Below the pieces are notes generated by a model that saw only the letters and a list, made by a program, of their open reading frames with translations, made no database searches and was not told the DNA's origin. A stretch of DNA of 30,386 nt from assembly GCA_027001995.1 (NCBI GenBank), contig JALTLO010000049.1:18253-48638 (forward strand). Reading direction: 5' to 3'. Each line of letters opens with the position of its first letter. Position 1 is the first letter of the stretch. The DNA is from Planctomycetota bacterium. GTDB taxonomy: Bacteria > Planctomycetota > GCA-002687715 > DRQF01. Position numbers and translations under genes: made by a program. This document shows, one piece after another, positions 6,002 to 29,749 of the stretch.

Positions 6002-6976
6002 ATGCTGAGATCGATCGCGACCTTGATACTGATTCTCCATGTCTCTGCGTTCGGACAGGGAACACCCGTCGCTTTGGACTTGGCAGTCGAGGCCGCAGGA
6101 CCGTACGACACGGCCAATTGGGCAACCCGTGTCAACAACGCCAACTTGATCGACTTACTTTCGACAAACTCCATTTCCAGTCCTGTTCTGGCACCGGGCA
6201 ATCCTTTGGGATGGGCCCTTGCCAACTTCTATCGCCTACGCTGGAATCGGGCGGTCAACCGCTTGGGCACCCCTTTTGCTGGGTCCACTTCGAAACTCCG
6301 TCTTACCCACCTCTACAGCTCATCGTGGATCATTGAGAACAGTGGCTTGACTTGGGGAATCGACGTGGTCGAAGGACCGTTCGGCAATTACGGATTTGCG
6401 GGCAGCATCACCATGACAGAAGTGTTTGCCATGGCGAACAAACTGGATGCCCTATTCGTCACGCATTCGGACTCTGACCACCTCAGCACCTCCCTCGCCG
6501 TCGCCATGCTTTTACTTGGCAAACCTGTAATCTGCTCAATCGACTTAGGTGCTGTTGCCCTGGCCTTGGGCGCCCCCCCTTCCCTGGTCGAAATCCCGCG
6601 AACTGGATATCGCGGCGTTTTAACTGCAAACGGCTTGATAAAATATTCCGTCTACAACGGCAAACAGCGTGTCGGCACACCGACGGTGGTCGACTGCAAC
6701 GCCTATGCGTTCGATACCAATACTGGACAAACCATCATCCATGGTGGTGACGTCGAAGACCCAGGCTTTGCCACTCACATCATGAGCGCGAATTGGTACG
6801 CCGACTTCCTCCTAAACCCCAGCACATCTTACGTCCCACACAACTATCAATTCCTGAGCCACGAACTTGAATACACCCATTTCGGCTCAGCTCTCCTCAA
6901 GCTCAATATGCCAACAGTCGGGCCCTGTCCTCCAAGTCGCTTCGTCCTGATCTGGGGTGAAGCGGTCGAGTTCTGA
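6002..6976 (+). CDS. Secreted MBL-fold metallo-hydrolase-like protein
   Basis: Signal peptide; LTHLYSSSWIIE...ID, LDALFVTHSDSDH (variant HxHxDH), IIHGGD, late HE. Confidence 0.65.
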   Translation: MLRSIATLILILHVSAFGQGTPVALDLAVEAAGPYDTANWATRVNNANLIDLLSTNSISSPVLAPGNPLGWALANFYRLRWNRAVNRLGTPFAGSTSKLRLTHLYSSSWIIENSGLTWGIDVVEGPFGNYGFAGSITMTEVFAMANKLDALFVTHSDSDHLSTSLAVAMLLLGKPVICSIDLGAVALALGAPPSLVEIPRTGYRGVLTANGLIKYSVYNGKQRVGTPTVVDCNAYAFDTNTGQTIIHGGDVEDPGFATHIMSANWYADFLLNPSTSYVPHNYQFLSHELEYTHFGSALLKLNMPTVGPCPPSRFVLIWGEAVEF

Positions 6977-7044: not shown

Positions 7045-7084
7045 CACCCCAACTCCTTACGCTGGGTTGGGGTGCGATTTTTTG
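7045..7084 (+). terminator. Probable intrinsic terminator after the MBL-fold gene
   Basis: Stem CACCCCAACTC / GGGTTGGGGTG (one G-U) with 8-nt loop, then CGATTTTTT. Confidence 0.55.
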
Positions 7085-7150
7085 CCTTCGACTTCACTTC
7101 CACAGGAAACTTCCGGTATCATGCGGCTCACCCAACAAGGACGGTTACCC

Positions 7151-8890
7151 ATGCCACTGTATCGCCACAACACTCCCTACGCTGCTCTAGTCGCACTTAC
7201 GTTATTTCTCATGGCCGCTTGCTCCGACAACAGCTCAAGAGACAGAAACAATGAGGAGCCAATCGGTGGAGCGTTCGCTCCGATTCTTCACCCCAACCCC
7301 AACATGGATGAGGTTGAAGAACTCAGTGAACAGGTCGCGAACCGATTGATCGAGTTTTCTTATCGGCTAAAAGAACGTGACCTTAGGGGAGCATCAGCAT
7401 ATGTTTCTCCCACCATTGAAGGAAGTTCCCTCGCACAAGGAACGGTCACCGGCGACATCTCTCTTCCGCTCAACAGTAAGCAAGTGATTCGTGAGGTGTC
7501 TGAGAAACTCCCCCCCTTTTCTCGGGACGAATTCCTTGGGGCACTCGACCAAACTCTGGCCACCTTCACGACACTCGACTATGTGTTCTTTAAGACCAGG
7601 GGAGCTGAGTTCAATCGAAATGGTGATCGAGCTATCCTCAAGATGACTGCTTCGCTCATTGGAAGCAATCACAATGGCGGAAGACGCTCTCTCTATGCCT
7701 GGGCCGACGCCGCTGCCAGCCTTTCTGACGACGGTTGGATCCTCACCGGTTTTTCCGTGCGCAAAACCCGTGCGAAGGAGTGCCAGAAACCTCTTTTCAA
7801 AGAAGTAGCCACTGCTGCAGGTATCGCCGTCGATGGACCGCGAATCGGAACTGAGGGAAACGATCGTTTTTATTGGCGAGGATCAAGCGCCGCAGACTTC
7901 GACGGTGATGGTCTCATCGACATTTTCAGCTCCGGTTTCAAGAGGAACTTTCTTTATCGCAACAAGGGTGATGGATCCTTTGAGGAAGTAGCCGAGGCGT
8001 CTCAAGTTGCTCAACCTTCAGGCCCCACATCGACGATTTTCTTCGATTTCGATCGAGACGGTGATCAAGATCTCCTTCTGGGTTTCGTCGGTTGGGAAGA
8101 AGATGGCTTGCCCTTGGGCGACAGCCTTCATTTGCTCCGTAACGACGGCGGCACTTTCGTCGATGTCAGCCAAGAGGTTGGGCTCAACAATTTCCGGGGA
8201 CCGACATTCTCATCGATTGTCGGTGATTTCGACAACGACGGCTGGTTAGACATTTATGTGTGCAACTACGAGAGACTGGATGCCGCTTACCCGGACTCCT
8301 GGTTCGCCGCTACCAATGGTAGTGAAAACTTCCTTCTCATGAATCACAAAGGAAAATCGTTCACCAACGAAGCCCGAGAGCGTGGCATCACCGGCAGTCA
8401 TTGGACTTTTGCAGCCGCTGCTGCGGACTTCGATGAAGATGGCGACTTAGATATCTATTCCGTGAATGACTATGGAGTGAACGCCCTTTTTGTCAACGAC
8501 GGTACTGGGAATTTCAGCGATCAAGCCAAGCAATTTGGTGTTCTAGACTGTGGCAATGGCATGGGTACCTCCTGGGCCGACTTCAACGGTGACGGCAAGC
8601 TAGACCTTTATGTCTCCAATATGTCGTCATCCGCAGGAAAGAGAATCTTGAGACGTTTGGCCGCTCAAGAGAAGGCACAGGGCGTGCAAAAGACTCTCTA
8701 CAAATTGGCCGCAGGCAACAGCATCTTCATCAACACCGGAAAAACATTCCAAGCAAATCCAGAAGCACTGGGAGGTCGGAGTGCTTCATGGGCGTGGAGC
8801 CCTGTCATCTTCGATGCGAACTTGGATGGCCACGATGACATCTATGTTGCCAATGGCTTCATCTCTGGAGATTCCCTCAAGGACACCTGA
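7151..8890 (+). CDS. FG-GAP/VCBS-repeat lipoprotein (CRTAC1-like); probably the N-terminal part of a UGA-readthrough selenoprotein 7151..10000
   Basis: Preferred start ATG 7151 (AAGGA upstream) gives a signal peptide with lipobox MAAC; repeated DFDxDGxxD Ca-binding repeats; ends abruptly at ANGFISGDSLKDT-TGA. Confidence 0.85.
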   Translation: MPLYRHNTPYAALVALTLFLMAACSDNSSRDRNNEEPIGGAFAPILHPNPNMDEVEELSEQVANRLIEFSYRLKERDLRGASAYVSPTIEGSSLAQGTVTGDISLPLNSKQVIREVSEKLPPFSRDEFLGALDQTLATFTTLDYVFFKTRGAEFNRNGDRAILKMTASLIGSNHNGGRRSLYAWADAAASLSDDGWILTGFSVRKTRAKECQKPLFKEVATAAGIAVDGPRIGTEGNDRFYWRGSSAADFDGDGLIDIFSSGFKRNFLYRNKGDGSFEEVAEASQVAQPSGPTSTIFFDFDRDGDQDLLLGFVGWEEDGLPLGDSLHLLRNDGGTFVDVSQEVGLNNFRGPTFSSIVGDFDNDGWLDIYVCNYERLDAAYPDSWFAATNGSENFLLMNHKGKSFTNEARERGITGSHWTFAAAAADFDEDGDLDIYSVNDYGVNALFVNDGTGNFSDQAKQFGVLDCGNGMGTSWADFNGDGKLDLYVSNMSSSAGKRILRRLAAQEKAQGVQKTLYKLAAGNSIFINTGKTFQANPEALGGRSASWAWSPVIFDANLDGHDDIYVANGFISGDSLKDT

Positions 8891-8919
8891 AGTGTCTACT
8901 GGCGCCACGTTGTGGCGTC
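8888..8919 (+). promoter_or_regulatory. In-frame UGA plus putative bacterial SECIS hairpin
   Basis: TGA 8888-8890; 8-bp stem GGCGCCAC (8901-8908) / GTGGCGTC (8912-8919), apical loop GUU starting 18 nt after the UGA. Confidence 0.7.
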
Positions 8920-10000
8920 TTCCATGGGTGACTCAGAAGATTCAGCAACCGCAGAAATCACGAAGAAAGCAAACATTCAAGAAGACAAAGTCGGGAGCGA
9001 CCAATACAAGACCAACCACATGAGCCTCATCTTCCAGGAAGGGCTCTCCTTCTCAGGCTTCGAACGCAACAAGTTTTTCTTAGGCGACGGCAGTGGTCGG
9101 TTTGTTGATCTCTCTGACTTAAGTGGAGCGGATTCGGAAATGGATTGTCGAGCCGCATGCCTGGCTGACTTCGACAACGACGGAGACCTGGACCTATTCG
9201 TCAACTCCATACAACGAAAAACACATCTGCTCTACCGCAATGACCTTCATCATGACGATCGTCATTTCATCAAGGTTATTCTTCGGGGTACAAGTGGACA
9301 TCCAGATGCCATTGGAGCGACAGTTACACTCCTAGGAAAATCGAAGCAAACACATGTAATCTCTGGAGGGCCTAGCTTCGAGTCTCAACCCGCATTACCT
9401 CACACTTTTGGCGTCAAAGGCAAGACTCAGCGAATCATTCAGGTCCGATGGCCTGGAGGAAATTTGGAGAGCTTTGCAGTCAGCCCCACAAGCGAAAAAC
9501 AAGGGAATCAAATCTCTATATTCGTACTCGAAGAAGGAAGCGGCAAAGCCAAGCGCCATAGCCAAAAATCTTTTGAGCTGGCGGGAGCAAAGAAGAATGT
9601 GGGCCTGTCGATTGGCAAGTTCTTGCCCAAACTGAGCTGGTCTACGACACCCAACGTCCCCATTGATATGATAAACAACGATCAACGGCCAACACTCATT
9701 AACTTCTGGTCGACCACCTGCGTCCCCTGCTTGAAAGAACTGCCCGACTTAGAAAAACTCCACGCAAGTGCTAAATACCGTCTCATGTTGGTGGACATGG
9801 ATGGATTGGCCCATCCAAAGCGGCGCTCTGAGCTATTGGCCCAATTAGCTCCCAGCCTCACCCATGGTTCATTGGACGATAAATCATTGGAGCGTCTCTT
9901 TGGCAGCTCCCAAACTCCTCTGCCAATGAGTATCATCCTAGAGGCAGATGGCCGCATTCGTCGTATCGTACGTGGCGTCATCTCTCTTGAAGACCTATAG
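8912..10000 (+). CDS. ASPIC/UnbV domain + TlpA-like thioredoxin (CxxC) region; probably the C-terminal part of the readthrough protein, not an independent gene
   Basis: SFSGFERNKFF, final FG-GAP repeat DFDNDGDLDL, DAIGATV, VRWPGG (ASPIC/UnbV), then LINFWSTTCVPCLKELPDL (TlpA/redoxin). Same frame as the upstream ORF; no RBS before GTG 8912. Confidence 0.8.
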   Translation: MASSMGDSEDSATAEITKKANIQEDKVGSDQYKTNHMSLIFQEGLSFSGFERNKFFLGDGSGRFVDLSDLSGADSEMDCRAACLADFDNDGDLDLFVNSIQRKTHLLYRNDLHHDDRHFIKVILRGTSGHPDAIGATVTLLGKSKQTHVISGGPSFESQPALPHTFGVKGKTQRIIQVRWPGGNLESFAVSPTSEKQGNQISIFVLEEGSGKAKRHSQKSFELAGAKKNVGLSIGKFLPKLSWSTTPNVPIDMINNDQRPTLINFWSTTCVPCLKELPDLEKLHASAKYRLMLVDMDGLAHPKRRSELLAQLAPSLTHGSLDDKSLERLFGSSQTPLPMSIILEADGRIRRIVRGVISLEDL

Positions 10001-10021: not shown

Positions 10022-13000
10022 ATGAACCTAATGCAACATTTCTCTTTGTTCTGCCTGATTATGACTCTTGCTGCTTGTGGCGATTCTCCCCAAGAACTCA
10101 AGGACAATGAGGCCACCCAAAAAAAGCCGAGTTTGTTCTCTTTGAGGAACCGAGCTCGTTTGCACGGTCGTCGCGATAGTGAAGAAGGATTTCAAGAATC
10201 GGCCGAAATCCTTGACCAGATTCTATTGCAAGACCCAAAAGACCTCCGGGCTTTGATGGATCGCTTGCGCTGTGCCCTCCAAATTGATGGACAGGCAAAA
10301 CAAGCCCTAGCGCTTTTGGCTAAAATCGACGCCTTAGAGGTTCCTTCCAGCCAGCGAATTCCATTGGCATTCTTGCGAGGTGTTGCACACAAACGCAACC
10401 AGAATCATAAGGTTGCTTGGAAAGCTTTTACTGAAGTCACTCAAGCACTTCCTGAGCATCCCCAAGGACGATATCAAGCCGGATGGGCCGCAGAAAAAGC
10501 CCAAGAGTTTCCGAGCGCACGTATCCATTTCGAGGAGCTCGTGTCAAAGAAACTGCTCGTCCGCCCCGCCGCCTACCGTCTTTACCGAGTTCTTCAGCGC
10601 CTAGGCGACAAAAATGGAATGAAAAAAGCCTTAGAGATTTACGAATCTCGGCCCAGTGACGAAAAACCAGCCACAGAGAAATGCTCTTTCATGGAGCCCA
10701 GTGTGGCACCCATCCTGTTAGACGAATCACTCGCAAAAAGTCCACCCTTGGTCTTCACTGCCGAAGAAATTGAGGTAAATCCTCCGTCGGAAAAATTGGC
10801 CAATTCCCTAACCTGGGTCTCAGCAGATTTCGACAATAGCGGAATCGAGAGTACGATCGTCATCAACAAGGGTTCCATTCAACTCTTGGCAAGCAAAACC
10901 AGCCCCAGTGAATCCCAAACATTGGCTGTTGAAGGGGCAAAGCAAATCAAAGCTGCCGGGCAAGCCATAGCCATTGACACAGATCATGATGGCGATCTGG
11001 ATGTGGTTTTCTTTGGACAAGGAAGTGACTCTGGCAACAAGCTCATGCTGCTTCGTAACCTCAGCCACGCCAAATTCAAATTGGAGTCTCTGTTCTCGAC
11101 AGAACTCGCCGATTCCTCCCAGGATCTCAATGTCTCTGCTGGCGATTTCGACGAAGGAAATGATATCGACATTGTCGTCGCCGGGGGAAATATAGCGGCA
11201 AGGGTCGCCATGAATCTCCGCAACGACCAATGGCGAGCATTCGAAGTCAAGGGGCAACCTCGTAGCTGGGTTGTGAGTGCCGATTTCACTCAAGACGGAA
11301 TGGCAGACCTCCTGGCTGTTGGCTCTTCCCAGGGGGCAAGCCTTTTTGTCAACACCAACAGAGAGAAGAAACGGGCGATTGCCGCCTTTAGCGATGAGAG
11401 AAAGATCGAAGGATTATCTCAGATCTGGAGGGGTGCCAAAGCTGCTGACTTAGACAACGACGGCGACTTGGATTGCATCCTTTGGGGCCAAGGAGTTAGG
11501 ATCCTCCGCAACCGAGGCCAAGGTCATTTCGACGTAGAAACTCCAACCCAAAACCAAGATCAAACGCTCGCGTCGATTTCTGTCCTTGATCGTGATCAAG
11601 ACGGTCGGCTAGAGATTGAACTGCTCTCCGACGCTGGCAAGACCAATTACAGCTTGGAGGTTGCTTCCAAGGAGATTGGCAATGCCATTGCTTTAGTCCC
11701 CGATGGCCGCAAAGACAATCGAGACGGAGTAGGAGCCATCGTTGAAGTCTTCGCCGGTCAGATTCATACAACGCGCATGGTTCTGAAAGGAGGCCCACTT
11801 CATTTCGGCCTGGGCAAGGAGCAGTTGGATGGATTCGCGATCCGTTGGCCCCAAGGCATTCGTCAATCTGTAGTTGGTAAGGACTTAGACGCCATCAACG
11901 ATGGACTGATCACAGTCAAGCAGAAGCAGGGATTGGTCGCCAGTTGCCCCTTTCTCTTTACCAAGGGTGAGAATGGATGGACTTACAAGTCCGACATTGT
12001 TGGCATCGCTCCTTTGGACGAATGGCTACCCCGAGGTGCTCAACCTCACCTCGATCCTGAAGAGTTCATTCGCATCGATGAAGATGAGCTCATCATCGAG
12101 AATGGCCAAGTTCGACTAGCCATTACCGAGGAACTTCGGGAGATTACCTACTTGGACCGGGTCGAGCTCTACTACATCGACAAGTCTCCCCGCCAAGTGA
12201 TCCTCACAGACGAGAGCACACGCCAAGAAGCCTACGGTCCTCTCAGGTTCTGGGAAACCAACCCAGAGACAATTCACCCCCCTGCTTCGGTCACTGTCGA
12301 TGGCAAAGATGTTCTTGCCGCAGTCCGGGCCTGCGACGGCAACTATCTCCACGGCTATCGGATGGGCCCAAGCCAACTTCTGGGTTGGGGACCACGGCAT
12401 GATTTAGAAATTGAATTGAGCAACGGTGCAGAAGCACTCTTCTTGCAAGGGCGGCTTGCCTGGTATGACTCCACCACTTCCTACGCGATGGCACAGAAAT
12501 CACTCACCTGGGAAGAGCCACGCCTGGAGATCTTGAGAGAAGACGGCCGATGGGCGCCGCTGGTACAGAGCATTGGCTTCCCCGCTGGCATGGACCGCAG
12601 CTTGATCATTAGATTCCCAGGAGGTTCACTGAGCTCAGGAAGGAAGATTCGTCTCATTTCGAACCAACGCTTCCTTTGGGATCGCATTGCTTTGATTTCA
12701 CACTTAAGTCCTGTCGAGATTGCCACATCCCCGACACATCCCATCAGCTCAAAGCAAGTCCAGCAAGCCGAAATGATAACAGCGACCCTCTTCGACCGAG
12801 GATTCTCGCGAACAAAAGGGTCAACAGAAAATCATGAGCAAAGATACTTGTGGCAGGCCGATCCCAAAGACGATTTCGACCGTGCCCGGGGTTGGGCCAC
12901 CGCTTTTGGTGACGTCAAAGAGCGCCTACTCCACCACGACGATTCTCTCTGCATTCTAGTTTCTGCTGATGCAATCGCACTTTCTTTTGCTGTAGAGCCC

Positions 13001-13177
13001 AAAGCTTCCCAAATGAAACGAACTTGGTTCCTTCGAGTTACGGGGTGGGCCAAAGAATCAAGTTTCCACAATCAAAGCGGACGAGACATCGCCCCTTTAC
13101 CCCATCGATCCATGAAAAGTTATCCCCCGGCAACAGAACGGCATCGGCAAGATCAAACCCGGCGGGTAACACGATAG
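10022..13177 (+). CDS. TPR + FG-GAP + ASPIC/UnbV-like lipoprotein with a large C-terminal domain
   Basis: Lipobox LAAC; helical TPR-like N-terminus; DxDxDGDLD repeats; DNRDGVGAIVEV, LHFGLG, IRWPQG; then ASCPFLF, ITEELREITYLD, GWAKE motifs; starts 21 nt after the preceding stop (operon). Confidence 0.85.
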   Translation: MNLMQHFSLFCLIMTLAACGDSPQELKDNEATQKKPSLFSLRNRARLHGRRDSEEGFQESAEILDQILLQDPKDLRALMDRLRCALQIDGQAKQALALLAKIDALEVPSSQRIPLAFLRGVAHKRNQNHKVAWKAFTEVTQALPEHPQGRYQAGWAAEKAQEFPSARIHFEELVSKKLLVRPAAYRLYRVLQRLGDKNGMKKALEIYESRPSDEKPATEKCSFMEPSVAPILLDESLAKSPPLVFTAEEIEVNPPSEKLANSLTWVSADFDNSGIESTIVINKGSIQLLASKTSPSESQTLAVEGAKQIKAAGQAIAIDTDHDGDLDVVFFGQGSDSGNKLMLLRNLSHAKFKLESLFSTELADSSQDLNVSAGDFDEGNDIDIVVAGGNIAARVAMNLRNDQWRAFEVKGQPRSWVVSADFTQDGMADLLAVGSSQGASLFVNTNREKKRAIAAFSDERKIEGLSQIWRGAKAADLDNDGDLDCILWGQGVRILRNRGQGHFDVETPTQNQDQTLASISVLDRDQDGRLEIELLSDAGKTNYSLEVASKEIGNAIALVPDGRKDNRDGVGAIVEVFAGQIHTTRMVLKGGPLHFGLGKEQLDGFAIRWPQGIRQSVVGKDLDAINDGLITVKQKQGLVASCPFLFTKGENGWTYKSDIVGIAPLDEWLPRGAQPHLDPEEFIRIDEDELIIENGQVRLAITEELREITYLDRVELYYIDKSPRQVILTDESTRQEAYGPLRFWETNPETIHPPASVTVDGKDVLAAVRACDGNYLHGYRMGPSQLLGWGPRHDLEIELSNGAEALFLQGRLAWYDSTTSYAMAQKSLTWEEPRLEILREDGRWAPLVQSIGFPAGMDRSLIIRFPGGSLSSGRKIRLISNQRFLWDRIALISHLSPVEIATSPTHPISSKQVQQAEMITATLFDRGFSRTKGSTENHEQRYLWQADPKDDFDRARGWATAFGDVKERLLHHDDSLCILVSADAIALSFAVEPKASQMKRTWFLRVTGWAKESSFHNQSGRDIAPLPHRSMKSYPPATERHRQDQTRRVTR

Positions 13178-20220: not shown

Positions 20221-21105
20221 TTATGGTGAAGATGCTGAACTCGTATCCTGAGAATCATGTTCATCTACGCGACCAAACCGCAATGGGGGAATCGCCCCCG
20301 CTTCCTTGCTGAACACCATCTTACACGCTTCGATGCAGTCGCCACAACGAATGCACTCAGCGTCGCCATAGCGCTCTGGCTCTTCGTCAAATCCCGTCGC
20401 TTTCTGTTCGACCACAGTCCCCAAAGCCTTGGGGTCTATCTTGACTGGGCAGATTTTTTCACAAGCTCCGCACTCAATGCAGGGATTGGGGATTTCCTTG
20501 AAAACGATCCCAACCGGGGCCTTTGACGTCACCAGGCGATAGTAGAGGCCTATGGGACAGACATGAATGCAGAAGCCAAATCGCCAGATAAAAGCGTGTC
20601 CAAGTCCGCCCAAGGTCATGATAAGAAAGATTCCCGCCGTCACAGCCTTCGCCGTAGGAGAACCGTCGATCATGACCCGGGGGTCAACCCACCAGAGCAT
20701 CACCGCAATGATAAAGGTCGCAACGAACGAAGCGCCTTTCAGGTGCATCAAGATTTCCTGCAATTTTGAGCGACTATTGGCAACATCTTCGCCGAAACGC
20801 GCCACATAACCGACAGGACAACCCCAACCACAAAAGAACCTGCCAACGATCATGTTGGAAATGAATGTGCCGCCATACATAATTGCCATGGCAATGATTG
20901 AGCCCTTAAGAGCAGCAAAGAAATCGACTGATTCCCCCAAGAGCAAATGATCGCCGCCCCAGAGATCAACACGGGCTAGTCCGGTTACCGGCACCATGAC
21001 GAGCAGGGCCAAGGAAATCGTGATCACGACTATGCGCAAAGCTGTAAAAGCAGCCCCCTTGCGAGACACCGCCGACAACATGCGCACGCGATCTTCTTTG
21101 GTCAA
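20221..21105 (-). CDS. ccoG: 4Fe-4S membrane protein, CcoG/FixG-like (start uncertain: TTG 21105 or ATG 21081)
   Basis: TM helices with GRFFCGWGCP and FCIHVCP motifs, plus CIECGACEKICP and ECIRCGDCIEAC ferredoxin motifs; last gene of the cbb3 cluster. Confidence 0.8.
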   Translation of the reverse strand: MTKEDRVRMLSAVSRKGAAFTALRIVVITISLALLVMVPVTGLARVDLWGGDHLLLGESVDFFAALKGSIIAMAIMYGGTFISNMIVGRFFCGWGCPVGYVARFGEDVANSRSKLQEILMHLKGASFVATFIIAVMLWWVDPRVMIDGSPTAKAVTAGIFLIMTLGGLGHAFIWRFGFCIHVCPIGLYYRLVTSKAPVGIVFKEIPNPCIECGACEKICPVKIDPKALGTVVEQKATGFDEEPERYGDAECIRCGDCIEACKMVFSKEAGAIPPLRFGRVDEHDSQDTSSASSP

Positions 21106-21779
21106 TGACAGCAAGTCGCAGCTCCTGGCTCCATCATAATTGGACCCCATGCCCGCCAAGCAGTCGAAAGTCCAATGGCAATCAACAAGATTGCACCACC
21201 GACTTGAATCGTCCTGGGCCCCAATCGACTTTTTATTTTGCCAGACAAGAACCCAACAAGCAAAAGAGAAGGGGTGGTACTGACGCTCACCAAGGCCATA
21301 AGTGCGATCGACTTAATAATCGTCCCGGACAGGACGGCCTGAACTGCGGCCAAATAAACAATGCCGCAAGGCAGCAATCCAGTCACCGCGCCCAAAGCGA
21401 AAGTTCCTTTCAGGCCAGTCAAAGCTCTGGCGCCGCTGAAGAGGGGCTTTAGGAATTGGGAAAGATGCCGGGTCCATGATGCAGACCGGCGCTTGGGCAA
21501 CAAAGACATCAAACCTGCAGCGATCAAAATGAGAGCGGCACCCATGGCGGCATAGGCTCGCGCCGCGTTTGAATCCCGCAACACACGGGCCCCGAACCAA
21601 CCAGCAAGGGCACCCAAGAATGCGTAGGTAAAGGCCTTGCCAAGAACGTAAGCCAAGAAAGAACCCCGATGCCGATGAGTGGCAGCCTTCACTGCGAACA
21701 CACCACACATTCCGGCACAGTGGGCAGAGCTTGCCAAGCCCAACAGGATGGCGAAAGTCAAAATCTCACCCCAGCTCAT
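21102..21779 (-). CDS. DsbD_2 / TauE-SafE-like membrane protein of cbb3 biogenesis clusters
   Basis: GL.SSAHCAGMCG and GLLPCGIVY motifs; ATGA overlap with the ATPase stop. Confidence 0.85.
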   Translation of the reverse strand: MSWGEILTFAILLGLASSAHCAGMCGVFAVKAATHRHRGSFLAYVLGKAFTYAFLGALAGWFGARVLRDSNAARAYAAMGAALILIAAGLMSLLPKRRSASWTRHLSQFLKPLFSGARALTGLKGTFALGAVTGLLPCGIVYLAAVQAVLSGTIIKSIALMALVSVSTTPSLLLVGFLSGKIKSRLGPRTIQVGGAILLIAIGLSTAWRAWGPIMMEPGAATCCH

Positions 21780-23833
21780 ACAACCTCCTCCCCGAAAGAG
21801 AGCAGTCCAAAGCTACGGGTGCATACCACCATGCTCGAAATAATCATAAGAATGGCTGCGGCCAAGGGGTGAAGACGACCGGTTACAGCCAAGCCCAATG
21901 CAACCACGTTGTAGGCCACAGTCCATGCGATATTGCCAACTGCCACCTGCCTCAGTTTTCTGGCTCCTGCCAAAAGTAGAGTTAAGTGGGACAGGTCATC
22001 ATCCAAAATCTCGACCCCTGCTTGGGATTTCGTAGCTGCGGTCCCATCCGCTACCGCCACTCCCACCTCAGCTGCTCGCAACATGGGAGCGTCGTTAAGG
22101 CCATCTCCCACCACCAAGACTTTCTTCCCCATTTCCTGGAAATGCTTGAGGTGCTTGAGCTTGCCCTCCGGGCTCAAGCCACTTTTCGCCTTGATGCCAA
22201 GTTGGTCACCGATAGATTTAGCAGCCAGGGCATGGTCACCAGAAACAATCTCTGGCTCAAGATTGCTCTCCACAAGGCCTGCAATGACCTCCTTGGCTGA
22301 CGTTTTCAGTTCCTGAGCCAAGTAAGCCAAAGCTTGGACCCGACCAGCCTCGGCGAAAGCTACCACAGTTGAGCCATCAGCCAGCAATCTCTGTCTTTCG
22401 TTTTCTGTTTCGGGGTGCCAAGAAAAACCCTGTTCATCCATCCAGGTTGGGCTACCAGCGAAGCAATCAGCGCCATCAATGAGGCCCTTGACACCAGAGC
22501 CAGGAACAACTTTGAGCTGGTCCGGCTGAAGGTCCCTTGCCAACACAGCTTGAGCAAGAGGATGATTGGAGGCACCCACAAGAGACTCGAGTTTCTGCAT
22601 TTGTTTCTTGTCAGTACCGGGAATGCCCACGAGATTTCCCAATGTCTGGGTGAGGGTCCCAGTCTTGTCCAGAAGAACCTTGTCGACCATCGCTGCGGCT
22701 TCTAGGGCACGGGGATCCCGAATCAGAATGCCTCGACGGGCCAAAGAAGCTCGCATAGCACGGTAAGCCAAAGGCGTTGCCAAGCCCAAAGCGCAAGGAC
22801 AAGCAACCAAGAGAACGCTCAAGGCGACTTCAACCCCCGCCCCCAAACCAGCACTTCGGTAACTCATGTAGCCACCAGCCGCCGCCAACGACAGGGCCAC
22901 CCAAGCGAGGTAGCCTGCCAAACGATCGGCTAACATCATGAACCGCGTCATCCCCATTGGAGAATCCAGGAGCTGTCGAATACGCCCCATGGTGCCCTCG
23001 TCAGCACGTTGGGTGACGCGAGCCCGAAACAAACCTGTGCCATTCGTTGCCCCAGCATGAACCAGCGTGCCAGGAACAATGGGACGAGGTCGATGCTCTC
23101 CTGTAATGTGAGCTTCCACCACTTCACTGCGCCCTTCCGTCACAACCACATCTGCGGGGACAGATTCTCCCGGTCCGACCACGACCAAATCACCGATTTT
23201 TAGATCAGCGGGCTTGCATTCAGTGCGCTGGCCTCCGGGCTGAATAACCTGAACATTTTCTGGCAACAGCTCTGCCAAGAATTGGGCGGCGTCCCGACCT
23301 CGGGTGCGAGAATGGGCTTCCAACCGTCTGCCGAACATGACTAAGACAAGAACCATGGTTGCCGTATCAAAATAAACCTCGCCCCTGTCGGCGAATGTAT
23401 TTCGTAACGACAGACCGTAGGCGGCCAGAGTTGCCAAGCAAATGAGGCCATCCATGCGGATCGCCCCACGCTTCAAGTCAAGCCAAGCACCCTTGAGAAG
23501 TGGAAGCCCCAACAAGATGAAAACGGGAAGAGAAAAAACCGACAAGGCCAAACGCCCAATGCCACGAATGGCATTGGCACCTTGGTCGTCAACCCCGTCA
23601 TAAACTGACTCGCCGTAGAGAACGAGGCTAAAAGTCATGACTCCCATGGCGAGGAAGGCCGAAAGCAGCAATCGAGCTTCAAGAAACTCGACTGCGCCTT
23701 TGCCAGCTCCCACCATGGCCGAGGCCATACGGCAGCCAACGCAACAGAAAAGCGTCTTAGGATCCGCCTCCACGCCTGGGTTCAGGCGCAGAGGCAGTTC
23801 ACAGTGAGCGCAGATCCCGGCCGCTTCAGCCAC
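21776..23833 (-). CDS. ccoI: Heavy-metal (copper) P1B-type ATPase, CcoI/FixI-like
   Basis: N-terminal CAHC and FCCVGC, YFDT, TGE, ACPCALGLATP, DKTGTLT, HPLA, GDGLNDAP, YN and AA.LM..SS motifs. Confidence 0.92.
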   Translation of the reverse strand: MAEAAGICAHCELPLRLNPGVEADPKTLFCCVGCRMASAMVGAGKGAVEFLEARLLLSAFLAMGVMTFSLVLYGESVYDGVDDQGANAIRGIGRLALSVFSLPVFILLGLPLLKGAWLDLKRGAIRMDGLICLATLAAYGLSLRNTFADRGEVYFDTATMVLVLVMFGRRLEAHSRTRGRDAAQFLAELLPENVQVIQPGGQRTECKPADLKIGDLVVVGPGESVPADVVVTEGRSEVVEAHITGEHRPRPIVPGTLVHAGATNGTGLFRARVTQRADEGTMGRIRQLLDSPMGMTRFMMLADRLAGYLAWVALSLAAAGGYMSYRSAGLGAGVEVALSVLLVACPCALGLATPLAYRAMRASLARRGILIRDPRALEAAAMVDKVLLDKTGTLTQTLGNLVGIPGTDKKQMQKLESLVGASNHPLAQAVLARDLQPDQLKVVPGSGVKGLIDGADCFAGSPTWMDEQGFSWHPETENERQRLLADGSTVVAFAEAGRVQALAYLAQELKTSAKEVIAGLVESNLEPEIVSGDHALAAKSIGDQLGIKAKSGLSPEGKLKHLKHFQEMGKKVLVVGDGLNDAPMLRAAEVGVAVADGTAATKSQAGVEILDDDLSHLTLLLAGARKLRQVAVGNIAWTVAYNVVALGLAVTGRLHPLAAAILMIISSMVVCTRSFGLLSFGEEVV

Positions 23834-24011
23834 CCAAGTCTGCCTTCAGAGCGACCAGAAGGTGGTTCACAATGTAAAGGGTGGCAATCACGATGAATCC
23901 AACCCAGATAATTTTCATAAAGAAAGGCATGCGGCCATGATCATACTCAAAATTGTAGGCGGTCTGATCGTCACCTGCGATATCAGGAGTTTCCGAATTC
24001 TTCTCGGTCAT
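23826..24011 (-). CDS. 61-aa single-TM protein resembling the N-terminal (FixP_N-like) segment of CcoP
   Basis: RBS GGAG before ATG 24011; overlaps both neighbours; FEYDHGRMPFFMKIIW followed by one TM. Confidence 0.65.
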   Translation of the reverse strand: MTEKNSETPDIAGDDQTAYNFEYDHGRMPFFMKIIWVGFIVIATLYIVNHLLVALKADLGG

Positions 24012-24306
24012 AGCCGATCTCCATTTCCATGAGTTCATACTTTGCTTCTTCGATGTCGCTGAATTGCCCCGACATGAAGGCGTAGGCCAAAAGCAGCAGG
24101 AATCCACCAGCGACCAAGCAGTAGGTCAACAGATGAGACCCGGCGAAGCGCAAGCCATCCGAATCCGTCAAATCCAAGAAAAACTCGTAGAGCTTATAGA
24201 AAAAAGCAGCTCCTCCAGAGAAAACGACAAAGCCGAAGATCCATAGCATCACCCGATGCATGGATTGCGACGACTCATCTCGCTGTGTTCTTTGTACACT
24301 ACTCAT
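23983..24306 (-). CDS. ccoS: Extended CcoS-like cbb3 oxidase maturation protein (107 aa, two TM)
   Basis: ATG 24306 overlaps the ccoO end, RBS GGAG; C-terminal YAFMSGQFSDIEEAKYELM matches the CcoS W..xGQFxDxE motif. Confidence 0.7.
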   Translation of the reverse strand: MSSVQRTQRDESSQSMHRVMLWIFGFVVFSGGAAFFYKLYEFFLDLTDSDGLRFAGSHLLTYCLVAGGFLLLLAYAFMSGQFSDIEEAKYELMEMEIGYDREEFGNS

Positions 24307-25294
24307 CGTTGATCTCCCGAGTATCTTCTGGGCGCCAAGTTCCGAGCCACTGCAAGTAAGCAATGAGCGACAGACCTTTTTGATTTGGTCCAACAGCTTC
24401 TTCGACCCAGTAGGATTCTTCTAGGTTCGTGATTGCTTCAGCGTCACCACTGTTCTCCCGCTTCAGACCCTTCCGCGCGATCTCTTCTTCAACAATTTCG
24501 CCCATGGCGGATTCGGCATCAGCCTTGCTGCCAAAGATTTCCCGGCGCACAATGATTCCCGTATTAGGATCAAGATAGCCCGCCCGGGCTTTCTTAGGGG
24601 CGATCTTGCGCACAACGCGGAAACCTTCACGAGAATAGAAGGGAAACCGTGGCATGACACTGCCGGGGGTGGTGGATTGAGGATCATAGAGATGAGCTGC
24701 ATGCCAGTCATTACTGCGCTTGCCACCTTCGTAGGTCAAGTCTGGCCCAACACGCCGCGTACCCCACATCATAGGGCGTTGCAAATCGTTGTTGTCTTGC
24801 TCGGTGGTGTTCACAGGACCATAGCGCTGTTCCTCATTGGCAACAGGGCGCACAAACTGACTGTGACAATGCCAACAGGCATCTCCCACGTAACGATTGC
24901 GTCCAAGCTCCAAGGCTTCAGCAAAGACTTTAGGCCACAATTCGTCGCTCGTTGTCCGCAATGCGTCTATTTCGTCCCCGATCTTCTTCAGAGCTTCCGC
25001 TCTTGCCGGAGGTGACAGTTCCTTTGGCAGAGCTTCGATTTTTTCGTTCTTGATCGCAACCAAAGCTGCCTCGGTGTAGACCTCATCAGAACGGGCAAAT
25101 GACTGATCAAAAGCCAATGGCCAAGAGTCACTCATCGACTTAAAGTCAGGAAGAACGTGAGATGCTAATTCTTCAATTGTGGCTCTTTCTACCTTCGCAT
25201 CCGTAATCAGAAACGGATAGAGACCAGAAAGGAGCACAGAGAAGATAAAACAACCGAATCCTGCGAAGAGGATAACACTTTTGAATTTATCCAT
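24299..25294 (-). CDS. ccoO: cbb3-type cytochrome c oxidase subunit II
   Basis: GR..Y....CWHCHSQFVRP, WGTRRVGPDL, WH..HL.DP....PGSVMP, LIAYLQWLG. Confidence 0.93.
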   Translation of the reverse strand: MDKFKSVILFAGFGCFIFSVLLSGLYPFLITDAKVERATIEELASHVLPDFKSMSDSWPLAFDQSFARSDEVYTEAALVAIKNEKIEALPKELSPPARAEALKKIGDEIDALRTTSDELWPKVFAEALELGRNRYVGDACWHCHSQFVRPVANEEQRYGPVNTTEQDNNDLQRPMMWGTRRVGPDLTYEGGKRSNDWHAAHLYDPQSTTPGSVMPRFPFYSREGFRVVRKIAPKKARAGYLDPNTGIIVRREIFGSKADAESAMGEIVEEEIARKGLKRENSGDAEAITNLEESYWVEEAVGPNQKGLSLIAYLQWLGTWRPEDTREINDE

Positions 25295-25297
25295 GAT

Positions 25298-26764
25298 TTA
25301 CTTCTCCTCTATCGCAACAAGATCAACTCGATAGTCATAAGGTTTCCCTGTTCCCATGGCCGTCTTGTAGACATTCCAAGCGAAGCAGAGTTGGCCGATG
25401 ACAATCATCAATCCAGCAACAGTTCGAATCATCCAAAACGGCTTCAAAGAATCGACGATGGACATCCAAGGTGCGAGTTCCGCGAACATGAATCCGTGAA
25501 CCAAACCACCGGCAGTCAAGTCGGTGAACATGATGACCAGACCAATGACGCTCAGCCAATAGTGCCACTGATTGAGACGACGGTTATGCCAATCGCAGCC
25601 GGTCAACCTTGGCCAGATCCAAGTGATCATGCCAAGAATCCAGAACGCGAAAACTCCCAACATGACCAGATGTGCATGGGCCGGCACCCAATCAGTGAAA
25701 TGAATGTACTCTTGGAATGTCAGAGTCGTCTGAAAAGAACACTGTAAACAGGTGATGAAGTAGCAGACCATGCCTGTATAGAACCAACGAATCGGGAGGT
25801 TCGTTCGCAGAGCTGCTCCCCTTCCCCACATGGTGGCGAAGAAGTTCACAACAACCGTAGTCACCACAATCTCAACTGCAATGGTGGAGATCACGGCACC
25901 GTACTGCACACTCATCGGAATCGAAGAGAGCAAGAAATGGTGGACACCATTCAAAGGATAGAAGAACGCTAAAGCCCAAAAGCCAATCACGCTGAGTGCA
26001 TGACTCCAAATTGGTTTGCGCAAAATGATGGGGACAAAGAAATACATCAAGCCCCAGCCCATGGGAGTCACGAAGAGCCCCACAAGGTCATGAATAAACA
26101 AACCAACAGTGGCACCACCAGAACTTCCGGCGAGCGACCACTCTGGCAAAGTGTTTCCCATGACATAAGTTAAAATCAACCAGATAATTCCAGCGGAAAT
26201 GTACCAAGAAGAGACATACATCCGCTTGTGAACACTCTTAGCAAGTGGCGTCAAGAACTGAGCCGCCACCAAAAGGGCACCAAACTCAATTAAAAAGTCC
26301 ACGGGCAAGAAATTCATCCGGAAGGTTCCAGGTTCGAAGCCGGTTGGCGTCTCGCCCCATTCCACTCCCTGGGCTCTTCCCATGAGAAGTCCCACAGTGA
26401 CCATGAAAATCAAGAATTGCCAAACCCAGAAGATGATCCAGCCCAGCTTCTTGCCCAAAACTGGCCGACCAGTCATGCGAGGCACAGCATAGTAGAGCAT
26501 GCCCACGAATCCATTCACCAAGAAACCATACGCAATTTGGTTGGTGTGGATCATACGCAGACGCCCGAATGAAAGATATTCAGAGACGCCATCGAGGGGA
26601 TTGTGATTGAAGAATTGAAAAGAGATGATCAGTCCCACAAGCATCGAGCACACCATGAATGCCAAAGCAGCAATGATGTGGGCCTTTACTAGGCTCTTCT
26701 CAACCAGACTGCGGCCCCCATTGGAGGCGGCGATCGTTTCGTCCTTAGGTGTATCAGTTGTCAT
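25298..26764 (-). CDS. ccoN: cbb3-type (C-family) heme-copper oxidase subunit I, divergent type
   Basis: RBS AGGAGG before ATG 26764; FGRLRMIHTN, IHDLVG, FYPLNGVHH, HFTDWVPAHAH supply the six conserved His; about 12 TM. Confidence 0.93.
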   Translation of the reverse strand: MTTDTPKDETIAASNGGRSLVEKSLVKAHIIAALAFMVCSMLVGLIISFQFFNHNPLDGVSEYLSFGRLRMIHTNQIAYGFLVNGFVGMLYYAVPRMTGRPVLGKKLGWIIFWVWQFLIFMVTVGLLMGRAQGVEWGETPTGFEPGTFRMNFLPVDFLIEFGALLVAAQFLTPLAKSVHKRMYVSSWYISAGIIWLILTYVMGNTLPEWSLAGSSGGATVGLFIHDLVGLFVTPMGWGLMYFFVPIILRKPIWSHALSVIGFWALAFFYPLNGVHHFLLSSIPMSVQYGAVISTIAVEIVVTTVVVNFFATMWGRGAALRTNLPIRWFYTGMVCYFITCLQCSFQTTLTFQEYIHFTDWVPAHAHLVMLGVFAFWILGMITWIWPRLTGCDWHNRRLNQWHYWLSVIGLVIMFTDLTAGGLVHGFMFAELAPWMSIVDSLKPFWMIRTVAGLMIVIGQLCFAWNVYKTAMGTGKPYDYRVDLVAIEEK

Positions 26765-27719
26765 CGTGACCTCCTGGTAGACCGCCACCGGAATGAACCC
26801 GGTTTACGTAGGCTTCAGGATCTTTGAGGCTAAGAACGAAATGTGCCAAGGCCCAAATTTCTTCGTCGGATCCAGGAATTGCAGGCATGGGGGTTCCCGT
26901 TAGTCCAGTTCTCATGCGGATAAAAATGTCTTCTGGTTTACTTCCTGACCGAAAAACACCCGTGGTGAAATCACGAGCAATGATGGGTTGGTCCTTCCAG
27001 TCTCGAAGAGTGTAAGAAGATATGCCATCACCGCGCCCCGTATCGCCGTGGCAACGATTGCATTCGCCTAAATAGCGTTTCTTGCCAAGAGCCAAGAGTT
27101 TAGCCGTGACTTTGGGTGATGGTGGTACAGCGATGGGCTGCAAGCTTGACACCCTTTTCTTCCAGACCTTAGCCTTAATATCATTGATGTCGGAAGCCAG
27201 GACCTCTTCCAAGGTCTGCCCAGTCTTCTTCATGTGCCGCGCAACTTCATCACGTCCCTTACGAAAAGTTGAGACATGTTGAACATAAGCGGCGACTGCC
27301 TTCTTCTTGACGTCTGACATCAATTCGAAGGAAGGCATCGATGAACCTGGCAGTCCTCGCGTAATCGTCCGGACCAAATCAGGAATACGAGGCAACTTGC
27401 CTGTCGGGGTGGTCCGAAACTTGAATTTCGCATTTTGGAAATTGCGAGGTAGAGGGTCTAAGAAAGCCGAAGCTGGCCCATCCCCCATGCCGTCATCCCC
27501 ATGACACCCGATACAGCTTTCCTCGTAGACAGTACGACCAAAGGCCGCAGTCTTAGACATGGGCCAATCGTCCAGGGTAAAGGCTTCCGAGATATCCGGC
27601 TGTTGAACCGGCGGTTTTGCCGTCGTCGTGGGGGGCCCAAAAACGACGAACAACGTCAGCACAATGATCAGCGACCCAGCCGTGATCCATGTGCCAATGT
27701 TTCGCTTACTTGATCTCAA
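26754..27719 (-). CDS. Membrane-anchored diheme cytochrome c
   Basis: Start TTG 27719 with RBS AAGGAG; N-terminal TM; CIGCHG..G.GDG..PRNF...GSSMP and CNRCHG..G.GDG..ARDF...GTPMP (two His/Met class I domains). Confidence 0.9.
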   Translation of the reverse strand: MRSSKRNIGTWITAGSLIIVLTLFVVFGPPTTTAKPPVQQPDISEAFTLDDWPMSKTAAFGRTVYEESCIGCHGDDGMGDGPASAFLDPLPRNFQNAKFKFRTTPTGKLPRIPDLVRTITRGLPGSSMPSFELMSDVKKKAVAAYVQHVSTFRKGRDEVARHMKKTGQTLEEVLASDINDIKAKVWKKRVSSLQPIAVPPSPKVTAKLLALGKKRYLGECNRCHGDTGRGDGISSYTLRDWKDQPIIARDFTTGVFRSGSKPEDIFIRMRTGLTGTPMPAIPGSDEEIWALAHFVLSLKDPEAYVNRVHSGGGLPGGHDDN

Positions 27720-27827
27720 CGCAGTGCTCCTTTTGTCGAAACGCGAAATGAGAGGACAAACGATCAAAAAAACAACATCACCCCCTCACGCAGATGGAGG
27801 GGATTGAGTAAGAATTTTGTTTGCATG

Positions 27828-27930: not shown

Positions 27931-28123
27931 GAATGATTACGACGAAATCATGAAGGTTGCCTGCAGTTCAAAATGAGAAACTCCATCACGTACGGTGATT
28001 TTCTATGCGAGTGGGGACAACCACACCAAAATTCCGGTCCACTGTGGCATTTACCCCAGGACAATCCATCCCTTGCCGCTCGATCATAGGCTCAACACAA
28101 TACGGCCACATAAGGAGATCGAG

Positions 28124-29749
28124 ATGATTCGTATCGTTGTCATCATGGCCGTCACATTCGCCATTTTCGCCCCACAAAGCACAGCCCAAACTGGACTTCC
28201 TGAAGGTCCAAACTGGGGACGTGGAAGAGATCCAGAAGGGAGCAACTCAGTCTTTGCGACTGCAGACGGTTGTGCAATCTGCCACAGTGCATCGGAAGAA
28301 GCCATTGCCATGCGTAGTGCCACAGGCGAGGATATTTCGCCCCACAATATGTGGCAGACATCCATGATGGCCAACTCCTTCCGGGACCCGTATTGGCGGG
28401 CCCAGGTATCGAAAGCGACTTTGGCTCACCCCAAGAAAGCCGCCGAGATCGAAAAACTCTGCACAACTTGCCATGCTCCCATGACCAGTCATACAGCGCG
28501 TCTGAGTGGATTCGAGCCGGCGCGGCTGAAGGACTTAGTGGGCATTCCCTTGGCAGAAGATGGTGTCTCTTGCACCGTGTGCCACCAGGCTCGTCCTGAA
28601 AATCTGGGCAAAAAAGAGAGCTTCAATGGTCGACTGGACATCAAACCCGGCCGAGACATTTTTGGGCCCTACCCTGAACCCACCGGTGGGCCCATGCGCA
28701 TGTTCTCTGCTTTTACACCCAACCACGGCTCCCACATTCAAACATCGGCACTCTGTGGCAGTTGTCACACTTTGGAAACACACCACGCTGTGGGCGCCGA
28801 AGGCTTCCAAGAACAAACACCTTATCTTGAATGGCTCAATAGTGACTTCGCCAAAGGCGGCAAGACAGAAAAGAGCTGCCAAGAATGCCACATGCCAGAC
28901 TTCGGCAATGTAAGAATCGCCCGCGCCCCTTTTGGCAGTGACTTCAACCTCCCAGCCAGACCCAACTATCGCGGTCATTCCTTTCAAGGTGGCAATGCTT
29001 ACATGCTCGACCTTTTGGCCAAGAACCGAGAAGAACTGGGTGTCAAAGCACCTGAGGACGCCCTCAAACGCGCAGCAATCGCTACCCGCAAGCAACTTGC
29101 AGACACGACCGCGAAAGTGAGCATCTTGAATACGCGTATCGAAGACGGTCATCTCAAGTTCGATGTGCGCGTCGAAAACAAGACAGGACACAAGCTTCCC
29201 AGCGGTTATCCATCCCGTCGTATCTGGCTCGCCATGGAGATTCGCCAAAGACGGGGACGCGTCTTCCTTTCTGGTAGCTACACAGAAGATGGCCGCCTTG
29301 AGGATGTGGAGAATCCCTTAGCCTTGCCTCACGTTGACGTTGTCACAAAAGATAACCAGATTCCCGTATGGGAAACGGTTGTGGTCGATGCTGCTGGCAA
29401 ACCAACCACCGAACTTGTGGCCATGGCCCGCTACAAGAAAGACAATCGAATCTTGCCCAAAGGCTGGAAAAAGGACGGTCCCTATGGCAAGGAAACAGCG
29501 CCCGCCGGCATTGGTGACGACAAAGACTTCCTCGGAGGTAGTGATACTGTCCATTACGATTTAGACTTGGGCAAAGACATCGAAGACGGGGGTGTCATGA
29601 TCGCTCGGTTGTTCTATCAGACAATTCCGCCGGTATGGGCTCTTGACCTTCAAAAGGTTGAAACCAAAGAAGCTAAACTGTTCATGAAGCTATACAAGAA
29701 GTCACCGACGAGCACGGAAATCCTCTCTATGGACATCCAAAGGTTCTAA
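28124..29749 (+). CDS. Periplasmic pentaheme cytochrome c
   Basis: RBS TAAGGAG before ATG 28124; signal peptide; five CxxCH (CAICH, CTTCH, CTVCH, CGSCH, CQECH); W..SMMANSFRDP, GHKLPSGYPSRR, KDNRILPKG; heme-free C-terminal domain. Confidence 0.9.
   Translation: MIRIVVIMAVTFAIFAPQSTAQTGLPEGPNWGRGRDPEGSNSVFATADGCAICHSASEEAIAMRSATGEDISPHNMWQTSMMANSFRDPYWRAQVSKATLAHPKKAAEIEKLCTTCHAPMTSHTARLSGFEPARLKDLVGIPLAEDGVSCTVCHQARPENLGKKESFNGRLDIKPGRDIFGPYPEPTGGPMRMFSAFTPNHGSHIQTSALCGSCHTLETHHAVGAEGFQEQTPYLEWLNSDFAKGGKTEKSCQECHMPDFGNVRIARAPFGSDFNLPARPNYRGHSFQGGNAYMLDLLAKNREELGVKAPEDALKRAAIATRKQLADTTAKVSILNTRIEDGHLKFDVRVENKTGHKLPSGYPSRRIWLAMEIRQRRGRVFLSGSYTEDGRLEDVENPLALPHVDVVTKDNQIPVWETVVVDAAGKPTTELVAMARYKKDNRILPKGWKKDGPYGKETAPAGIGDDKDFLGGSDTVHYDLDLGKDIEDGGVMIARLFYQTIPPVWALDLQKVETKEAKLFMKLYKKSPTSTEILSMDIQRF

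Follow-up and report, generated by a model that had tools for sequence, protein, structure and literature searches.

An in-frame TGA in a planctomycete gene for an exported FG-GAP/UnbV_ASPIC protein is very probably a selenocysteine codon

Two open reading frames separated by a single TGA

Does the TGA at positions 8888-8890 of this stretch of planctomycete DNA end a gene, or does it encode an amino acid within a longer one? The stretch (contig JALTLO010000049.1 of assembly GCA_027001995.1, positions 18,253 to 48,638; "the window" below, 30,386 nt in full) comes from a draft metagenome bin of 204 contigs that is 92% complete. On its + strand, an open reading frame (ORF) at 7067..8890 closes at this TGA, and a second ORF, which opens with GTG and spans 8912..10000, lies in the same frame. 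A single in-frame TGA separates the two, exactly as an initial annotation made from the letters alone had read them, and translation across it gives ...ANGFISGDSLKDT-U-SVYWRHVVASS.... That annotation proposed that the codon is read as selenocysteine (Sec) with the help of a hairpin resembling a bacterial selenocysteine insertion sequence (SECIS). Comparison with related sequences suggests that this is very probably correct. The features on which the argument turns are as follows.

7151..10000, + strand: putative selenoprotein gene of 949 codons plus a TAG stop; codon 580 is UGA, and annotation would split the gene at 8890
8888..8890, + strand: UGA very probably read as selenocysteine (Sec580); same column in 82 loci and, in the model, first residue of helix 580-592
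8901..8919, + strand: SECIS-like hairpin, GGCGCCAC-GUU-GUGGCGUC, within the codons for W-R-H-V-V-A-S; -12.0 kcal/mol
7045..7084, + strand: terminator-like hairpin and T run of the upstream gene (6002-6976); 11-bp stem at 7045-7074 with 7 G-C pairs

The terminator-like hairpin overlaps the nominal TTG start at 7067, and because this TTG sits in a structure belonging to the upstream gene we do not take it to be the real start. An AAGGA can be read 9 nt 5' of ATG 7151, and a database fragment that is 99% identical (P0002) begins at the Met equivalent to this ATG. The true start is therefore most simply placed at ATG 7151; a weak promoter-like site lies at 7093-7122, 3' of the terminator-like hairpin. 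Counted from this ATG the read-through protein has 949 residues and the TGA is codon 580, in agreement with the initial annotation. Full-length homologs with one TGA were found, and they support a single gene at 7151-10000.

Homologs had been suspected to be often annotated as split at this position. Indeed, of the 120 best database proteins about 54 have lengths of 539-631 residues and extend over just 44% of the query region, and both split homologs that were fetched (P0002 and P0016) end in ...GDSLKDT, immediately before the TGA column. Elsewhere in the window TGA is an ordinary stop codon, since it ends 5 of the 16 family-bearing ORFs. Reassignment of TGA in the genetic code was rejected on this count and because none of the 15 other ORFs carries a TGA in frame.

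Conservation of the TGA in three phyla

When the read-through protein was searched against 41 related genomes, an in-frame TGA was present in 19 of the 21 best matches. When the 160 residues around the site were used as a tblastn query, the column could be placed in 42 of 100 loci, and two of these (L051 and L102) were dropped for poor alignment. The 40 loci kept comprise 28 with TGA at the column, one of which (L056) is counted only after a 4-codon shift of the alignment, and 12 with a sense codon. Identity to the window over the same 160 residues ranges from 28 to 79% among the first 28 loci. The records that hold TGA loci are named as Planctomycetota, Phycisphaerae, Acidobacteria, Vicinamibacteria, Pyrinomonadaceae, Roseibacillus, Akkermansiaceae and Verrucomicrobiales.

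Of 301 genomes sampled evenly across the phylum, 45 gave a match at E <= 1e-12. TGA is carried by 71 of their 78 matches, 43 of these 45 genomes have one TGA form or more, and all 29 loci fetched from this sample have the TGA at the column. In a sample of 301 Acidobacteriota genomes, each of the 38 best matches to a full-length relative has one TGA (three of these genomes are flagged as unpublished, and no claim is based on those three), and the codon stands at the column in 30 of 30 loci fetched. After removal of duplicates we obtained 82 distinct Sec loci in Planctomycetota, Acidobacteriota and Verrucomicrobiota, all with TGA at the same column and with conserved flanks. The residues around the Sec follow the motif D-[TL]-U-S-x-[YF]-W-R-x-V-V, and AG comes after every TGA. 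In the 100 loci whose site was read, neither TAA nor TAG occupies the column.

The initial annotation had named Cys at this column in some homologs as a further sign of selenocysteine. This holds in part: TGC occupies the column in two relatives (L027 and L147, verified at the DNA level), and most sense-codon relatives have a residue other than Cys.

Contigs from four public runs (X1-X4; assembled contigs, not raw reads) were compared with the window over 8600-9200. One of them, a 4,535-nt metagenome contig of another study, has 33 differences in 600 bases, none at 8888-8890. Because this divergent and independent contig keeps the TGA, we excluded an assembly error; the codon is thus confirmed at contig level in other data. 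Short contigs of other organisms match only 8882-8919 (38 nt, comprising the UGA and the hairpin) with about 5 differences, and the summed contig depth there reaches 98 in X4. This is the stretch of the family that is most conserved at the DNA level.

Some loci carry more than one TGA or occur in many copies. One genome of the phylum sample (G213) has seven separate TGA paralogs on one 7.9-Mb chromosome-scale contig. In L017 (G008:C678) a second TGA replaces Trp ahead of the CxxC motif described below, and L128 (G047:C78) has two extra TGAs, 21 and 25 codons past the Sec, and then continues in frame to the CxxC tail. Further Sec sites at the extra TGAs of L017 and L128 were considered and not adopted; we treat these codons as probable errors or mutations.

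Covariation in the hairpin downstream of the TGA

The stem of the hairpin pairs 8901-8908 with 8912-8919 around a GUU loop (8909-8911) and has 8 bp, including one G-U. It begins 10 nt past the UGA, with 18 nt between the UGA and the loop, exactly as first described. The + strand of the window has 16 hairpins of equal quality (8 bp, at most one G-U, loop of 3-5), or one in about 1,900 nt; the presence of one beside the TGA is more than chance. Folded whole, the 76-nt stretch 8885-8960 is of ordinary stability (z = -0.78), and only the local hairpin stands out.

To compare the loci, alignment columns were counted from the T of the TGA, which puts the stem at 14-21 and 25-32 and the loop at 22-24. 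Among the first 28 Sec loci, 26 have the hairpin in one fixed register, and in the other two it is displaced by 1 nt and its loop is GGUC. At least 6 of the 8 pairs hold in every one of the 59 later loci (29 of the phylum sample and 30 from Acidobacteriota), and the hairpin is kept, with compensatory changes, across all 82 distinct Sec loci. In the 28-row Sec alignment, loop bases G22 and U23 are invariant, 79.8% of the pairing cells are paired as compared to 71.7% in shuffles, and the covariation score is 0.280 as compared to 0.121; none of 500 shuffles reached either value. Sliding the partner by 1-3 columns in the same alignment lowers pairing to 34-67%. Pair 18-28 occurs in the Sec alignment as CG (8), GU (7), UA (4), AU (2), GC (2) and UG (1).

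This variation can be followed through the codons. The third base of the Arg codon covaries with the first base of the Ala, Thr, Ser or Pro codon four codons on, giving the pairs CGC/GCG (Ala), CGU/ACG (Thr), CGG/CCG (Pro) and CGG or CGA/UCG (Ser). Pair flips also accompany amino-acid changes, as in WREVLAP (two pairs at once), WCQVVAS (C-G to U-A) and WRQVLAS. In contrast, the 12 sense-codon relatives, which have the same or a similar peptide, have 44.8% of the cells paired, like shuffles (107 of 500). Their longest paired run has a mean of 2.6 as compared to 6.6 in the Sec loci (Mann-Whitney p = 3e-6, a value inflated by kinship). The covariation that the initial annotation had proposed to look for is therefore present in the Sec loci and missing from the sense-codon relatives. 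Because of the covarying codon bases and the unpaired sense-codon relatives, conservation of the protein alone is insufficient to explain the hairpin, and these data suggest that it is selected as RNA.

Selenocysteine machinery in the host genome and its relatives

All four genes expected of a selenocysteine-using bacterium, selA, selB, selC and selD, are present in the window's genome, a check that the initial annotation had called for. The tRNA-Sec scores 68.2 bits (cut-off 47) and has the anticodon TCA, SelA is matched at E 1.5e-136, the wing domain of SelB scores 65 bits in a frame of 693 residues, and SelD scores 357 bits. The selD gene carries one in-frame TGA and is for this reason probably the Sec form of selenophosphate synthetase. 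The genes for SelA, SelD and tRNA-Sec adjoin on one contig (G000 C148:21981-24409; L001, L009, L011).

The phylum sample has SelA in 221 of its 301 genomes, and every one of the 45 with a match to the family, the 43 with a TGA form included, is among them. The chance of this co-occurrence would be about 2e-6 if the genomes were independent, which they are not. The three acidobacterial hosts tested also have SelA. In G027, which holds one of the TGC forms, a SelA match was not found at 91% completeness.

Weighing the explanations for the TGA codon

The simplest account of these data is that SelB and tRNA-Sec, recruited by the hairpin at 8901-8919 with G-U in its loop, would decode the UGA as selenocysteine. 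The decoding mechanism would then be the ordinary one, with SelB acting at a SECIS inside the ORF, for which we take fdhF of E. coli to be the type case. As in other bacterial genes of this kind, the UGA is followed after about 10 nt by a stem-loop with G-U in the loop (here in GUN and GGUC variants), selA to selD are present in the genome, and gene callers truncate the gene at the UGA. It is the host protein that appears unusual. Unlike the classical bacterial selenoproteins, it is predicted to be an exported beta-propeller and not a cytoplasmic redox enzyme or thioredoxin-fold protein, its Sec would stand outside any CxxU or UxxC motif, and its relatives mostly have residues other than Cys at the column.

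Several observations weigh against the selenocysteine reading. All of the support for it is comparative. The association with SelA is inflated by kinship, and about three quarters of the phylum sample have SelA anyway. In the relatives without Sec the column holds mostly E, N, S, A, D, R, L, I or Q; such replacements are unusual for a catalytic Sec, and the classical pairing of Sec with Cys is thus seen only in part. The two TGC forms (L027 and L147) are short and distant and have no thioredoxin tail, and two other proteins with Cys at the column (P0007 and P0008) are known as protein-level sequence only; the best relative of P0008 in the Acidobacteriota search is 74% identical and has the TGA. 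Because the hairpin sits in the codons of a conserved peptide, WRHVVA, part of its conservation is driven by the protein, and one sense-codon relative (L079) still makes 5 pairs. Finally, no SECIS family came up when 8840-8980 was scanned with Rfam (E up to 10; two chance matches only), although this result is uninformative because bacterial SECIS elements are poorly covered in Rfam.

Could the TGA instead be read by a near-cognate tRNA (Trp, Cys or Arg)? Such programmed read-through, with partial termination and with the hairpin acting as a stimulator, would yield the full-length protein without selenium. It would conserve the frame, the TGA and the hairpin likewise, the inserted residue cannot be read from the sequence alone, and the column tolerates many residues in relatives. 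It would not, however, explain why the phylum genomes with a TGA form have SelA in 43 of 43 cases, why the full Sec machinery is encoded in the window's own genome, why TAA and TAG are found in 0 of 100 loci, or why the 10-nt spacing and G-U loop fit the bacterial SECIS model as we know it. In addition, the co-occurrence of the codon with a CxxC motif or an adjacent Cys points to a chalcogen residue. We consider near-cognate read-through quite improbable. A different possibility is that the gene callers are right and the locus holds two real genes, one for a 579-residue propeller fragment and one for a separate 362-residue protein that starts at GTG 8912; nearly half of the best database proteins (about 54 of 120) stop here. 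Against this, the supposed start codon GTG 8912 is part of the hairpin stem and codes for a conserved Val, and a promoter-like or terminator-like site was not found between 8890 and 8912 on the + strand. The frame is continuous across the TGA in 82 of 82 loci, the sense-codon relatives are single proteins, and the structural model folds as one propeller across the site (predicted local distance difference test score, pLDDT, 88-94). Two separate genes are very unlikely.

A lone TGA in a draft metagenome bin (204 contigs, 92% complete) is also the usual signature of a recent nonsense mutation, which would make the locus a pseudogene, or of an assembly error. The same column holds TGA in 82 distinct loci from three phyla, however, the contig from another study keeps it in spite of 33 differences in 600 bases, and the 369 codons downstream are open and conserved. 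This explanation is extremely unlikely, and decoding of the UGA as selenocysteine is the reading that we adopt below.

Architecture of the predicted protein

Read through the UGA, the gene would encode a 949-residue exported protein composed of an N-terminal alpha/beta domain, a CRTAC1-like propeller, a UnbV_ASPIC domain and a TlpA/ResA-like tail. The lipobox Cys, the FG-GAP propeller, the UnbV_ASPIC domain and the thioredoxin-fold tail with its CxxC that the initial annotation had assigned were all found.

7151..7222, + strand: signal peptide with lipobox-like ...LFLMAAC, Cys24 at 7220-7222, as read from the sequence
7793..9250, + strand: FG-GAP beta-propeller, residues ~215-700, with Ca-loop-like DxDxDG motifs; contains the Sec site
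9308..9475, + strand: UnbV_ASPIC domain, residues 720-775 (PF07593, 28.7 bits, cut-off 23.4)
9608..9991, + strand: C-terminal thioredoxin-fold (TlpA/ResA-like) domain, active-site C857-V-P-C860 at 9719-9730

Met is not the commonest residue at position -3 of a lipobox. The column of Cys24 is kept in the four closest homologs and in P0007, and the product is probably lipid-anchored. Between the signal peptide and the propeller, the model places an alpha/beta domain (7290-7790, residues ~47-212) of two helices followed by a curved sheet, with pLDDT above 90; no Pfam or NCBIfam match was found for it. The propeller is matched by the Pfam families FG-GAP_3 (168 bits in six stretches, cut-off 26.9) and FG-GAP (48.3 bits, cut-off 22.1). 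As the initial annotation had noted, the FG-GAP series goes on beyond the TGA, with DFDNDGDLDL at residue 673, and is followed by the CVPC motif at residues 857-860 (nt 9719-9730). NCBIfam offers no model that spans the protein, and its only matches, ResA-like and TlpA-like ones on the tail, are weak.

The AlphaFold2 model, built with 27 aligned sequences, has a pLDDT of 87.5 and a predicted template modeling score (pTM) of 0.82, and most of the propeller is above 90. The top Foldseek match is murine CRTAC1 (9etn_A; E 5.1e-26, template modeling score (TM) of 0.72 on the target, 16% identity), and the tail matches ResA (1su9), Etrx2 (4hqz), DsbE (3gl3) and also 4nmu with TM of about 0.7 on the target. 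Sec580 is modeled as the first residue of helix 580-592, with pLDDT of 88 and 94 in the blocks concerned. This helix is predicted to be the first of three in an insertion (580-629) between propeller strands 563-568 and 641-645. The Sec is thus distinct from the thioredoxin CxxC (Sec580 as compared to C857 and C860), a point on which the initial annotation was right.

The protein resembles members of the CRTAC1/ASPIC-UnbV family (9etn and bacterial proteins named "CRTAC1 family", "VCBS repeat-containing" or "ASPIC/UnbV") in that an FG-GAP propeller is followed by UnbV_ASPIC. Unlike CRTAC1, it has a probable Sec at a three-helix insertion, an N-terminal alpha/beta domain and a thioredoxin-fold tail with CxxC. 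We know of no redox chemistry for CRTAC1 and, to our knowledge, there is no established chemistry for the ASPIC/UnbV/CRTAC1 superfamily, whose animal member is known to us only as a secreted matrix protein. The C-terminal 130 residues share the fold of TlpA, ResA, DsbE and Etrx and have W-x-x-x-C-x-x-C at the active-site position. In contrast to those proteins, the tail is fused to a propeller and scores below the profile cut-offs, and its proposed partner is a Sec in the same polypeptide.

Association of selenocysteine with the CxxC tail

Among evaluable Sec loci, 43 of 49 in the first sets and 30 of 30 from Acidobacteriota, 29 of these new, have the CxxC of the thioredoxin active site. Overall, 72 of 78 evaluable Sec loci have it, as compared to 1 of 17 evaluable sense-codon loci. 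In sense-codon forms the tail is missing or is degenerate (SxxC, xxxC or none). In the window's protein, C857-V-P-C860 aligns with the CxxC column of the homologs, whose tails pass the AhpC-TSA or Redoxin cut-offs with up to 68 bits.

Some Sec forms depart from this pattern. Two (L131 and L132; G089:C253 and G063:C792) have a Cys directly before the Sec, in KDC-U-TFYWREVLAPC, and a redoxin-like tail that has lost both Cys; their hairpin is rebuilt through two pair flips. Two others (L133 and L134; G102:C17 and G287:C49) are short forms that end about 195 residues past the Sec and have no thioredoxin tail. In these a Cys at +5 (U-SEFW-C, U-x4-C) replaces the Arg, and the hairpin is kept by a switch from C-G to U-A.

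Because CxxC goes with Sec across the loci, we infer a redox relay between Sec580 and the CxxC, for which we put the chances at a little under even. Reactive chalcogens usually sit at the N-terminus of a helix, and Sec580, placed there in the model, could be a redox-active nucleophile or peroxidatic center that acts on a substrate outside the cytoplasm. Oxidized Sec580 might then be resolved by the fused CxxC domain, which in turn might be re-reduced by membrane thiol-reductant systems. When selenium is short, translation would be expected to halt at codon 580 and leave a 579-residue fragment. Tentatively, then, the CRTAC1-like propeller could be the catalytic body of an extracytoplasmic selenoenzyme, with Sec580 as its reactive center and the TlpA-like CxxC, or in the variants an adjacent Cys, as the resolving partner; we lean somewhat against this fuller proposal.

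The caution on the relay reflects three results. The Sec state changes 5 or more times over a maximum-likelihood tree of 68 rows, and 4 of these changes are forced by well-supported branches. The independent contrasts that link Sec and CxxC all point in the same direction (4 of 4), and the sign test gives p = 0.125 because four contrasts cannot reach significance. Six Sec loci have no readable CxxC, including L017, where the motif lies behind the second TGA. The tail of the window's protein also scores below the Thioredoxin cut-off (19.6-23.2 as compared to 23.5 bits) and below those for AhpC-TSA (21.5 as compared to 26), ResA (29.5 as compared to 170) and TlpA (26.6 as compared to 230).

Previous reports and distribution of the family

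The initial annotation had placed the fold outside the classical selenoprotein families. The host protein is indeed unusual, but the family is not wholly new as a candidate: S9 Table of a 2016 study (PLoS One; PMC4807772) lists four ASPIC/UnbV FG-GAP selenoprotein candidates, each of which is two genes in IMG. According to this table, bSECISearch was positive for 3 of the 4, and the closest match had Gly at the site. The candidates appear in the supplementary table, and the selenoprotein section of the main text is silent on them. Compared by domain description, not by sequence, they very probably belong to the same family as the protein described here. A search for main-text literature that pairs selenoprotein or selenocysteine with FG-GAP, ASPIC, UnbV, CRTAC1, VCBS or beta-propeller returned nothing relevant. 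In a 2026 review of prokaryotic selenoproteomes (PMC13188914), a look-up of terms that included Table 1 did not find "propeller", "repeat", PF13517, PF07593 or PF01839, and the family names were not found in the supplements of deep-Sep and BSepDB, where the BSepDB text was possibly incomplete. The family is widespread, mis-annotated and effectively uncatalogued.

If the selenocysteine reading is correct, dozens of database fragments of 560-620 residues named "VCBS repeat" or "hypothetical" are halves of selenoproteins, and a single rule, the motif D-[TL]-U-S-x-[YF]-W-R together with the hairpin, would repair the split annotations. The family is common, with TGA forms in 43 of 301 genomes of the phylum and in at least 38 of 301 from Acidobacteriota (counting the 38 best full-length matches), and it is often multi-copy. 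For these reasons, these soil, sediment and marine groups probably have larger selenoproteomes and a higher demand for selenium than has been estimated. The sampled Planctomycetota, Acidobacteriota and Verrucomicrobiota would carry a sizeable exported selenoproteome, with up to seven paralogs per genome, that catalogues have missed. An exported propeller with a probable Sec outside any CxxC-type motif, and evolutionarily tied to a thioredoxin-fold domain, also offers a testable lead to the function of ASPIC/UnbV/CRTAC1 proteins. Should the propeller prove to be catalytic, this superfamily would include redox enzymes.

Genomic surroundings

The gene that follows the putative selenoprotein gene is as follows.

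10022..13177, + strand: TPR and FG-GAP protein (TPR_19, TPR_16, FG-GAP_3), 21 nt downstream

The two genes are probably co-transcribed. The pair is syntenic in the close relatives L014-L016, where the neighbor is on the same side and 42% identical. Several other lineages have a Sec protein with TPR repeats fused at its own C-terminus, and the Sec gene and 10022..13177 are thereby linked in the manner of a gene fusion.

The window genes beyond this pair have no visible tie to the Sec gene. They encode an alginate-export porin, a DUF2142 membrane protein, a globin, a peptidase of family S46 and a cbb3-type oxidase cluster. The cbb3-type cytochrome oxidase cluster occupies 20221-27767 on the - strand and comprises COX1, FixO, a dihaem cytochrome c, a P-type ATPase, a DsbD_2 membrane protein and a 4Fe-4S protein, and a gene for a multihaem cytochrome lies at 27995-29749.

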